A model generated the notes under the pieces. The model had not been told where the DNA came from and did no database searches. It saw only the letters and a list, made by a program, of their open reading frames with translations. From Octopus vulgaris (taxonomy: Eukaryota): a DNA stretch of 64,000 nucleotides. Made by a program: the position numbers and the translations under genes. The stretch lies in NCBI GenBank assembly GCA_951406725.2, contig OX597822.1, forward strand, positions 87,978,001 to 88,042,000, written 5' to 3'. Of this stretch, positions 30,901 through 36,900 are shown piece after piece (the stretch's first letter is position 1; every line of letters begins with the position of its first letter).

Positions 30901-33900
30901 TAATGAAATTATTGTATACAGTGCTCAGGTGCATCACAACTTGTCAAAAGTGCATATAAAGGATATGCAGTAATGTACAAATGTCTGGGAAGAGAACAGT
31001 GTATGAGCCAGATACATGCTTGCGTGTGTATGGAGGGGAGAAAATCAGGTGTAGTGTTGGTGAATCTCGGGAAGCATGGAAGTTTTGAAGGATGCAGTGC
31101 TCCAACAACTAACAACTGATGCCAGCAGTTTGTTCCATGCTTCAGCAACTCTTAGCGTGAAAAAATGTTTCTGAAAGTCATGGGAGCTGTGCTGTTTTCT
31201 GACTTTGTAAACATGTCCACATTTAAGAAAAAAGGTTGAGGGCTTGTGATCAAAGGTCTGCTTGATTAGGAATAGCTTGGGGTTAAACAACAACAACAAC
31301 AAAATCAGCATTTTAATGATAGAACAATTTAAAGTAAACTTTAACCCCCCCCCAAAAAAAAAACAACAACATAAAAACATAAAGACAAATGTCAGTAAGT
31401 CACTTTCTTACCATTTTTAACAACATATAAATATCCCTAATATTTTGTACTCATGTTTGTTGTAAATTCCTTTGTAATACGTGCCCATATTAAACCCATG
31501 TTTTTCATTATACCCCTTACATGTGTCTTTCATTGTATTTTTTCGATTTTATGTACAGAACTGATGTACAATCGTAAGATTCAAAGATTTTTTTTTTTTT
31601 TCTGTTTTACTTCAATTCTTCTCTTCACTAACTCTGATCTTTTGGGTTGGATATTGATCTTTTGCTCGTGTGATCTTAATTCTATATTGTTTTCATCTCT
31701 TCTTTTTTGTTTTGTTTTCTTTTCATTATCCTTTGTTGTTAACTGCATCTTCTTTGATGATTTAATCATGTATATAGTTAACTTCTTGATAATAATCTCT
31801 TTCTATCATTCTCTTTTCCTGACTACATTATATATAAAACCTAAACTTGTTCCTTGAGAAAATCAACTATACAAAACAATACAATGCTAAATACAAAGTA
31901 TACAGCTGGTGAGAGGAAGTGAGGAAGTAACTCCCAGCAATGGTGTTAAAACAGCAACATTTGAGCTGCATTTTTATCTTGGAGAAGAGATGGAAGTTCA
32001 TAGGTGCTAAATTCCATTTTTTTTATAAAATGCAGATTGTTTTAGTTATTAAAACTATTCTTCAGAGAAATGTGAAGAGGATTTATGCACTCTTTATATG
32101 TTCTAGAATTACAATAAATACACATATTCAAATACGAAACCTGAATATGAAATCCCTCCTAGAAAAAACAAATATTAATGATAGAATGGCTAGCTGAGGG
32201 AGGAAATGAACAATAAAAAAATTTTGTGAGAAAGACTGATAGAAAAATAAGGAGAGGTGGTAATATATAAAAGAAATATATAAATTCAGTTGTAAGATGA
32301 TTGAAAAACAACTGCTTCAAATAGTGTAGAGTTTAAATTTAAGGTGTTTAAGTTAGTTGAAAGAGAGATAATTGTGACAAAAGTGTATACATAATGACAA
32401 CAAAGGTAAACTTCTTTGAAGTAAATATAAACTAAATAAGTTAAAAGTTTGAAGTATATATATAGTATAAATACACACGTACACACTTACATATGCAAAG
32501 TACACATACATACGCAAAGTACACATACATACATAAGTGTGTAAAACACACAAGTAAATATACATACATACATACGAAAAGTTCCTTGACTAGTTATGTT
32601 TAATGAAAAATAACTTATTTACCTCAGTTTTAACATCATCTCCTTTGAAATAGTCACCTTGCACAGCAATACACCAGTCCCAGCATTCCTGCCACTTTTG
32701 GAATCTGGCTTGGAAGTCTTTTTCCATAAGTGAGTTGAGGACCTTCTGCAATTTGCTCTTGATCTCAGCAATGGTGTTAAAACAGCAACCTTTGAGCTGC
32801 ACTTTCATCTTGGAGAAGAGTTAGAAGTTCACAGGTGCTAAATCTGGCAAATAGGGCAGGTGCAAAAGTGATACCATGTTGCCTTGGGCAACAAACTCAC
32901 GAATGATGAGAGCTTGGTGACAAGGTGCATTGTCGTGAAAAATCCAATTCTTTGTGCTCTACCGATCTGGTTTCTTTCACGGGACGTCCTTCCTCAAATG
33001 CTTTAAAACATCACAGTAGAACTCTTGATTGACAGTCTGGCCCTAGGATGCATAATACTGCAGATGTCAAAAAAGTTATGATCATGCTCTTGATTGAGCT
33101 GCAACTCTGTCGTGTGCTCATGCCACTTGAAGCATTGTATACAATCCATTGCCTCGTCACTGTAAGCTTGCCGAAACATGCTCAATGTCTCTGTAGCAAA
33201 CTTCCTAACTGTAACCCTTTAGCATTTAAACCAGTCATATCTGGCCAAAATATTCTCCCTTGTTTTATGTTCAAATTGGCCAGATCTGGCCTCTCACACC
33301 AGCCCTACTATATAATTCTGAAAATGAATAGTTACTTCATCAAAATCTCAAAGCTACAAGATAATGCAGGATTAATTTAAAACAATGTGAATAAATAAGT
33401 ATTACTTTTGACAGAATAACGTGAATACTAAAGGGTTAATGCAAAATTTCACATTGGACCTTTGTTCCATAACAAAAATTGTAGACTACAACATGCACAT
33501 GATCAGAAAGCATACATTTCACAACTTGCAAAGTAGACACAACAATGTCATTCGGCACACTGCCTCATGAAGTTCACTGCTAGCTCTCACTGCACATGCA
33601 ACCGTGAACTGCCATCTATTGGTGTGCTACAGAACTAGACCAGGAATTTTTTATACCACCTCATACAAATGCATTTACATGCTTGGCTACATAATCACAT
33701 GCTATAGAAATTGACTGATTCTTATAAAAGAGTATACAGATGACATTCAGACTCAAAATTTAAGAAATATGTTTAAGAAATTAGGGCTTAAGCAAGTTCA
33801 CTTTCTCTAAAATGAGTACAACTTAACTATAACTTTCAACTTTTCTGGTGATAAAAGTAGAATGGTTTTTTGCTCTTTGACTTGGAATGGCTTAAAGATT

Positions 33901-36900
33901 AAAGAAACTGTTTTGATATCCATGTTATTCTACCCTAGAAAAAGTATTCTTTTATATTGTCAAAACAAATGAAAAGGGAATTGAAATACAAATTTTTGTC
34001 TTAGGAATCCAAGACAGGGTTATATCTTTGTCAAATAATCCCATCTAATTTAGAAATAACAAAGAAGAAAACTGGTGAAAGAGGCTCATCAAACTTTTTA
34101 CAGATTGCTTGAGAAAGAAAGAAAGAAAAAGGTAAATTAAAGGGAGTATGTGTGATACCAGTAATTCACTGATTATGATAGAGCTGCAAAACTATTTCCT
34201 CCAAAGTGTCCAAATGTTGTCAACTTAGAAGAACATAAAAAATCCCAGCAGTATGTAAACAGAACTATAGAATCATTGAGCCAAACAAGAGACCTACTAC
34301 ATGGCTATTTGACATGCTAGTCATAACAGCTAAATCTCCCTCAGATAACCCTCTGCTATCTTAGAAAAGAGAGACACTGGATAATGTAGTTAACTGGGTT
34401 CATTATGCTTAAGAAAAAGGGGTGATGGTCTTTGATTACTGGTATGCTTAATCAAAGCTAACCTGGGGCTTAACAGTTACAAGATCTGTAAACTCGTATC
34501 AACAACTCTATTCTGACATAAAAACAATATAAGATATAAGGACAAACACCAGTAAGTCTCTTTCTAAACATTTTCAATAAAATGTTATTACCCCTAATAT
34601 TTTGTACTCATGTTCATTGTAAATTCCTTTGTAATCCTTGTTATATTTAACCCTGTGTTTTTTGTTATACTCTTGTTACATGTGTCTTTCATTGTATTTT
34701 TCTGATTTTATGTACAGAACAGGCTGGCAAGCGTAAGATTCAAAGACTTTTTTTTTTCTGTTTCTGTTTTTCTTTCATTCTTCTCTTACACACACACACA
34801 TACACACATACACATCTTTCTTATCACTAACTCTGCTCTTTTGGTTTGGTTATTGATCTTCTGCTCATGTGATCTTCATTCTGTTCTGTTTTTGCCTCTG
34901 TCAACCCTTTGTTGGCAACTACATTTTTCATTTAATCACTGTACAGCAACTTCATACTCTTTCCGTCTCTCACTTTCCTTCATTACATAGTTGGATATAT
35001 TGTCATCATCACCATCATCATTTAAAATCCAGGTTTCATGCTGGTATGGATTAGACAGTTTGATAGGATATGACAGGTCCAAGGATGGATCATGTTCAGT
35101 TGTCTACTTGGGCATGATTTTTATAGTTGGATGCTCTTCCTTATGTAGAAATGCAGGGTTAAAATATGCAAGAAGGGACCAGAGCAGAACCGGTTTCTTG
35201 TAGATGAGCTATATGGTTACTCCCATTTTAGAAGAGAGGGTGGGGGTAATTGTGTCGGAGCTAGGAAGAGATAAAAGTAGTGATAATGAGGTGTCTGAAT
35301 GAACTCACAGGTGTGAGGCATGTGGAAGTAAGCAGTGACAGAGAAACTGTGAGGGTAGGTGGGTAGATGTTGCAAGGTATTTATATATATATATATATAT
35401 ATATATATTACTACTACACAACCATGCCTATGCCATCATCATCATCGAAAGCGTATGCTAAACGATGATGATGATGATGATGATGATGATAGGCATAGGC
35501 ATGGTTGTGTAGTAAGAAGCTTTCTTTCCAACCACATTGTTCCAGGTTCAGTCCCACTGCATGGCATCTTGAGCTAGTGTCTTCTGCTACAGCCTCAGGC
35601 TGACCAAAGCTTTGTGAGTGGATTTGGTAGACAGAAACTGAAAGAAGCCTGTTATATATATATGTGTGTGTGTGTGTGTGCGTTTTTGTGTTTGTCCCCC
35701 ACATCATTGCTTGACAACCGATGATGATGTGTTTATGTCCCCATAACTTAGCAGTTCAACAAAGAAAACTGATAGAATAAGTACCAGGCTTACAAAGAAT
35801 AAGTCTTGGGGTCGATTTGTTCAGCTGAAACCTCTTAAGGCATTGCTCCAGCACAGCTTCTGTCAGATGACTGAAACAAGTAAAAAAATAAAAGAATAAA
35901 ATAAAATTTATATATGTTTTATTATTTGCTTCTTTTAAGAAGAAATATTGCTGTTTCCTATAATTTGCAACTGAATATTACTTACATAAACACAACTTTA
36001 TTAAATAATGAGATATGTTATCAAAAGAAGAAACATTACATTCCTAATTATCATAATCATGATATATTTAATTTCCAGTGAAATGTTCCCCATTGCATTA
36101 AAATTTGCCAATTTCTGCTGGTTCTGTCACCTAGTTGATTTGAAATTATTGTACCACATAATTTCTGGTGAAGTTTATAAAAGGACGTCTTTGAGGGGTT
36201 GTTTCTTCTCCATCCAAAGTTTAGGTTTCAGCCTTTGGGTGAATGCACTGTGCTTTGTTGTCCTATGCTTTGAGAGACACCTGTATTAGACGTCCACTTT
36301 AATCAAAATATATGGGAGATTTTCTTGGAACATTCATAATAGGAGCTGGTAATTTTTCTTCATATCAACAATTCACCAGCACTCTTAGACCTTTATAAAT
36401 TCAAGTTAGAACTCAGTTACCATATTTAAGATCTAAGACTTCGGTTAACCCCGAATTATAACATCTCTAATTCATTGTCAAAGCCTTTTTCTTTTTTTCT
36501 CAAATTAGGTCATCATACTGTTTCTGGTTCTTCTTTCTGATTTTCACTAACTTTTATTTCATTTCTTTCTCTGGCAAATTATGGAAAATACTTTTTGAAT
36601 TTTCCTGAAATTTGCTGAACATTGTTTTGCTGCATACTAAATTTACCTTATCATAAAATTTTCATAACATTAAGTTGATTAAAAACAAATTCATGTTAGC
36701 CAAATATTGATTTAATATATATAGTATATATATATATATATATATATATATATATATATATATATATATATATATATATATATATATATAAATAAATTAA
36801 ATTAGAAATAAAACCACTATTAGGCAACTCAAACAGTGATAGACATAAACCAAAACATAAAAAACAAAAAAAATAAATATAATTAATATAATATACAAAA

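Follow-up and report, generated by a model that had tools for sequence, protein, structure and literature searches.

A duplicated pair of probable microexons at the LE8-LE9 joint of an octopus laminin alpha chain

The window analysed here is a stretch of 64,000 nucleotides (nt) from Octopus vulgaris (assembly GCA_951406725.2, contig OX597822.1, positions 87,978,001 to 88,042,000 of the forward strand), and its feature of interest is a pair of 15-nt units, termed A and B, that lie within one long intron of a laminin alpha gene. A profile search with the exon encoding the ninth LE module (LE9, counted from the LN domain) matched the O. vulgaris protein P0003, a laminin subunit alpha-like protein of which 73 segments, from residue 141 onward, map exactly across the window and 200 kb downstream of it in the genome (G000). 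Pfam domains of this protein comprise LN, LE repeats, L4 and five LG domains, which together with a coiled-coil region place it among the long-chain (alpha3/5-like) laminin alpha subunits. The intron that holds A and B falls at the joint between LE8 and LE9, and only one of the 72 mapped introns of the gene is longer. The limits of the LE8 exon upstream are matched exactly by one contig in each of the runs X3, X7 and X19. A search of longer proteins (101-2000 residues) with the LE9 exon gave no match, full-length laminins falling outside that range, and a search of shorter proteins gave 55 matches with no named cephalopod among them.

Both units are free of stop codons, bounded by AG and GT, frame-preserving and within approximately 30 nt, as is typical of protein-coding microexons, and they share length, phase and intron in the manner of paralogous tandem exons. 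Their cores match at 8 of 15 positions, the sequence upstream at 40 of 42 nt and the sequence downstream at 14 of 14 nt, and the surrounding blocks align at 74% identity over 375 columns, with weaker similarity reaching approximately 31240-31830 in one copy and 34390-34990 in the other. An earlier note on this DNA had described two stop-free, phase 1-1 units of 15 nt in paralogous blocks, and their positions, their core match and the four open exon combinations were all confirmed, with the 16 cysteines of LE8 and LE9 retained in every combination. The possibility that the block is a dispersed high-copy repeat, which the note had raised against itself, was not borne out, as a DNA search of the 2.8-Gb genome returned at least two matches, namely the two copies. 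An origin as a dispersed repeat or transposon fragment was rejected on this lower bound of two matches, together with the lack of any pile-up of RNA-like runs on block B. In the DNA-like run X16 each block is covered by its own contig, which rules out an assembly artefact as the source of the duplication. By sequence comparison, the pair is the product of a single local duplication.

The evidence that these units are exons comes from a congener. Four records in the P0003 cluster are from Octopus bimaculoides (P0153-P0156; approximately 91% identity to P0003 overall), with P0155 grouped there on the basis of gaps against P0003 that are the same as those of P0153, and with P0154 not spanning the LE8-LE9 site. 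Both P0153 (RefSeq XP_052826867.1) and P0155 contain an 11-residue insert exactly at the LE8-LE9 joint, consisting of the A peptide plus an extra N followed by the B peptide with N in place of K. P0156 (UniRef A0A0L8G6U4) contains a 5-residue insert at this joint, the B peptide alone. Between the two species, A has thus gained one N and B carries a single K/N change, with a length divisible by three kept at the peptide level, as the earlier note had anticipated for real microexons; the simplest account of the extra N would be an A exon of 18 nt in O. bimaculoides. As exons this small in gene models are usually backed by transcript alignments, A and B are very likely real exons, probably expressed, whose inclusion is seen as database records of a congener and which would be spliced in O. 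vulgaris too. The proposal that these are in-frame microexons of the laminin alpha LE8-LE9 linker is therefore borne out by the O. bimaculoides inserts, and the accompanying expectation that standard annotation would miss them held for the O. vulgaris model, P0003, which omits both, and failed for two O. bimaculoides models, which include them. Table 1 gives the coordinates of the pair and its surroundings.

Table 1. Features of the LE8-LE9 intron and its flanking exons (positions within the window)
Feature	Position	Strand	Basis or remark
LE8 exon (upstream; ends in phase 1)	29174..29311	+	Pfam EGF_laminin; translation unchanged in P0003
Host intron, GT-AG, phase 1, 13,434 nt	29312..42745	+	mapped from P0003
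Duplicated block, copy A	31362..31693	+	block alignment; two genome matches
A acceptor with 157-nt AG-free zone, branch-point-like CTAAT at -122	31400..31558	+	sequence scan
Microexon A, 15 nt, phase 1-1, encodes ELMYN	31559..31573	+	AG acceptor, GTAAGA donor; peptide plus extra N in O. bimaculoides P0153, P0155
ACTAAC (Quaking-type or branch-point-like) at +54 downstream of A	31627..31632	+	motif scan; present in both copies
Duplicated block, copy B, with CA-repeat insertion downstream of exon	34520..34892	+	block alignment
B acceptor with 159-nt AG-free zone, CTAAT at -124	34557..34717	+	sequence scan
Microexon B, 15 nt, phase 1-1, encodes (E/Q)QAGK	34718..34732	+	AG acceptor, GTAAGA donor; QAGN in O. 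bimaculoides P0153, P0155, P0156
ACTAAC at +94 downstream of B	34826..34831	+	motif scan
LE9 exon (downstream)	42746..42919	+	Pfam EGF_laminin

In order to place the insert among laminin alpha homologs, the LE8-LE9 joint was scored in 173 distinct N-terminal sequences, of which 162 have no extra residue, seven were not scorable, one has two extra residues and three are the O. bimaculoides inserts, the only records with three or more additional residues. Of the best 120 full-length homologs, 112 span the joint without any added residue and three were unmappable; two proteins have one additional residue inside LE8 (one of them sharing its cluster with a protein named as cuttlefish), and two to four are present in three alpha3-like chains of fish. 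The insert was not found in the Argonauta record, in the P0161 cluster (12 mappable proteins; 15 of 28 members listed) or in the seven mappable proteins of the P0162 and P0163 clusters. The pair looks Octopus-restricted, a provisional assignment as records show presence and not absence. With the joint length fixed in nearly every laminin alpha record examined, a lineage-specific and possibly tunable insert at this site is unusual. Short length differences do occur elsewhere in this family: two isoforms of the scallop Mizuhopecten yessoensis (P0248 and P0405) are distinguished by 6 residues inserted at LE9-LE10, likely an independent microexon one module downstream, and laminin alpha records of Mytilus, Littorina and the cuttlefish cluster vary in their LG region by 5-6 residues. 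A linker of 15-22 residues is present between LE3 and LE4 in 29 of the 173 sequences and no extension is present there in 140; of 12 listed carriers, 11 are named vertebrate alpha5/alpha3-like chains (e.g. P0233, P0236, P0241-P0255). Clusters P0161 and P0163 are distinct full-length laminin alpha proteins that each include a Sepia pharaonis member, which suggests two cuttlefish paralogues.

Splice signals were scored with matrices built from the 72 introns of the gene itself. On this scale the A and B acceptors fall at the 38th and 32nd percentile and both donors at the 25th. When 183,570 intronic nt were scanned for candidate units of 3-30 nt, 11 reached the scores of A and B, six of them with a length divisible by three, and A and B were the only ones among the 11 with an AG-free zone of at least 100 nt; the thresholds were taken from A and B themselves, making this check on chance expectation post hoc. 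AG-free zones longer than those of A and B occur at just 3 of the 72 mapped acceptors, with a gene median of 43. Between the two copies, 54 of 56 positions agree in the splice-site flanks and 216 of 259 elsewhere in the block, a higher conservation of the flanks (p = 0.005). The ACTAAC motif downstream of each microexon has a background of 0.19 per kb in the introns of the gene and was one of eight motifs tested on two sides; no separate TAAY half site lies within 20 nt downstream of it in either copy. According to the main text of one report, Quaking promotes inclusion when ACUAAY lies in the intron downstream of an exon, as a rule accompanied by a UAAY half site no more than 20 nt away; the figure legend in the same source says the reverse (PMC9786888). 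The downstream ACTAAC is only a lead, one that would point toward non-neural control. UCUC tracts are nearly absent near both acceptors.

Several further splice-like signals were noted in this gene. The 5' edge of each AG-free zone carries a donor-like GTAAGT hexamer, at 31395-31400 (-164) and 34552-34557 (-166), which could be chance. Approximately 150 nt into the host intron, at 29459-29482, strong splice signals overlap, with an acceptor immediately followed by GTAAG at 29469/29470 in a recursive-splice-like arrangement; a possible 18-nt in-frame unit there (29459-29476) was not seen in the protein records. The splice scan also identified a third candidate microexon, again of 15 nt and in frame, whose splice sites are strong and which lies beyond the window in the longest intron of the same gene (G000:C9:88139118-88139132; 14.5 kb, after P0003 residue 2973). 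It matches an O. bimaculoides insert, NILNQ, and lies at approximately the position of NLTQS, an insert that some cuttlefish-cluster proteins have and others lack. The O. vulgaris gene model, which is without A, B and this third candidate, is thereby corrected. Very high-copy interspersed repeats lie beside and between the two blocks at 30894-31220 and 33212-33440, the first of which also matches 24670-24889 at 92%. Elsewhere in the window are reading frames that, judged by their motifs, resemble a mariner transposase (63081-64000), a Tc1-like fragment (41433-41885) and a Helitron-type helicase (5351-6343).

Taken together, the reading we prefer, at a probability of roughly 0.55, is that A and B are stackable, regulated cassette microexons that add a flexible spacer to the rod of the laminin short arm. 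LE arrays are described as rod-like spacers in the portions of the two sources available to us (PMC6744579, PMC11260871). Inclusion of A or B would replace the two-residue LE8-LE9 joint with a flexible spacer, in an optional and additive way that yields +0, +5 or +10 residues; regulation of this inclusion would come from the moderate-to-weak splice sites combined with long AG-free zones. All 16 cysteines would stay in place and both LE domains would still fold, and the spacer is predicted to abolish rod-like packing at the joint. This would let the LN polymerisation tip reach further or bend more freely, such that basement-membrane mechanics might be tuned by tissue or stage. AlphaFold models of LE7-LE10, built from 21-row alignments, gave a predicted template modelling score (pTM) of 0.64 for the skip form of O. 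vulgaris, with no segment under a predicted local distance difference test score (pLDDT) of 50, and a pTM of 0.49 for the A+B form of O. bimaculoides, in which the insert is modelled as coil of low confidence, with its residues 96-102 at pLDDT below 50, and the LE domains are intact. These models fit a decoupled LE8-LE9 joint, and are compatible with the variable hinge suggested in the earlier note, in a comparison that is confounded: low pLDDT is to be expected of any insert that lacks aligned relatives, and the two models differ in species.

This confounding is one of several points that weigh against a regulated flexible spacer. Some intrinsic flexibility of the LE rod has already been described in the part of PMC11260871 consulted, in which case an extra hinge may matter little. 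The three isoforms seen across O. bimaculoides and O. vulgaris derive from three annotation records rather than counted reads, and an A-only record was not found among the records examined. The second O. bimaculoides insert, that of the LG region, is likewise missing from the O. vulgaris model, so the skip form may be an annotation miss and is weak evidence of skipping. Searches of four of the 24 listed runs (X3, X7, X19 and X16) with positions 29100-34950 yielded no read or contig showing either inclusion or skipping; transposon matches swamp this search and LE9 lies outside the searched stretch, so the result speaks neither for nor against. Read depth of the RNA-like runs at 31452-31647 is not attributable to exon A, and among the X16 variants listed none lies in A or B, which is uninformative for a list cut short. 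Selection keeping the zones AG-free was not beyond chance (p = 0.14), and neither acceptor has a nearby UGC, the motif typical of neural microexons: in A the nearest lies at -77, and B has none within 200 nt.

One alternative is that A and B are effectively constitutive in Octopus and lengthen the linker permanently, much as the LE3-LE4 linker is long in vertebrate alpha5/alpha3-like chains. B is present in all three O. bimaculoides records that span the site, the sole skip record is the model that also misses another insert, and the 29 sequences with a long LE3-LE4 linker provide a precedent. This reading is nonetheless unlikely in our estimate, as A is absent from P0156, skipping returns the ancestral two-residue joint, the donors rank low among those of the gene, and the cuttlefish-cluster transcript proteins are divided over the other 5-residue insert of the gene (LG region), some having it and others not.

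No better placed is the view that the exons are alternative and that their peptide sequence matters, with A and B providing distinct loops that serve in binding or are protease-sensitive. None of the four full codons is shared by A and B, yet each peptide shows hardly any change between the two species, and in the portion of the neurexin literature consulted, splice inserts alter ligand binding (PMC10084454). The core is also more diverged than the whole block (Fisher p = 0.007) and than the upstream zone (p = 0.024), but not significantly so in comparison with the outermost aligned segment of the block (p = 0.17). As the result depends on the baseline, accelerated evolution of the core, which the earlier note had proposed as diversification after duplication, is not established; conserved splice signals around a loosely constrained core would fit the pattern as well as positive selection. 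In addition, A changed in length between species, inclusion of A or B creates no new cysteine or N-glycosylation sequon, and no ligand for the LE8-LE9 joint was found in the parts of the literature consulted. An origin of the microexons from the start of the LE9 exon was examined separately and is unsupported, with LE9 ranking 2nd to 33rd among the 72 acceptors of the gene and z below 2 in 12 of 12 comparisons.

Less probable again is a low-level, nearly neutral exonisation that is tolerated as it keeps the frame. The restriction to Octopus among the records examined and the moderate splice scores would suit such an event, but two different O. bimaculoides models carry inserts, the RefSeq one with both, and both the splice flanks and the peptides show conservation. 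An A/B switch with mutual exclusion, of the kind known for many tandemly duplicated exons and raised as a possibility in the earlier note, is very improbable: the tandem duplication, the equal length and phase and the existence of a B-only record are in its favour, but RefSeq XP_052826867.1 (P0153) and P0155 hold A and B together (in the annotation of a congener, not in reads), the exons lie 3.1 kb apart with no steric block by established splicing rules, and nonsense-mediated decay cannot enforce exclusion because double inclusion keeps the frame.

If inclusion of these cassette microexons is tissue-regulated, they would offer a natural and simple way to test whether basement-membrane mechanics are set by short-arm flexibility, and would also date a microexon duplication within octopods. 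As a speculation to which we attach little weight, microexon duplication may have created a graded dial with three steps (rigid, +5 and +10) that lets tissues such as arm muscle, skin and nerve set basement-membrane stiffness, with scallops having reached a similar solution independently one module away. Among the entries listed, titles and the beginnings of abstracts in the literature on microexons, laminin and octopus splicing contain no description of A or B, and the word laminin is absent from the main text, as far as consulted, of a bioRxiv preprint on splicing evolution (10.64898/2026.09.05.749416) and of a second preprint; the supplements of exon atlases and of these preprints could list them. 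The pair is apparently undescribed in print, though microexons, tandem exon duplication and ligand-tuning inserts are all known.

Microexons of agrin and of LAR-type phosphatases, in which a few spliced residues tune ligand interactions, are among the familiar extracellular examples. The short inserts of other mollusc laminin alpha records are single and at other positions (LE9-LE10 and LG), with no duplicated pair seen among them, and the vertebrate alpha5/alpha3-like LE3-LE4 linker likewise extends a linker in the first LE array, with greater length and at a different junction. Tandem duplicated exon substitutions, reported in the sections consulted to be mutually exclusive and mostly ancient (PMC9741552), resemble A and B in being paralogous, of equal phase, within one intron and diverged in coding sequence; in contrast, A and B co-occur in records and the pair looks genus-restricted. 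Neurexin splice inserts (PMC10084454) also introduce few residues into an extracellular modular protein, with theirs tuning known ligand interactions in the text available. Neural microexons dependent on eMIC/Srrm4 are characterized, in the portion of the source consulted, by long AG exclusion zones, CUAAY, UGC near the 3' splice site and a UCUC-rich tract (PMC8797185). A and B are like them in being short and frame-preserving, with long AG-free zones, a CUAAY motif and a weak 5' site, and are unlike them in the lack of UGC by the acceptor, the near absence of a UCUC tract and the presence of ACTAAC downstream instead.

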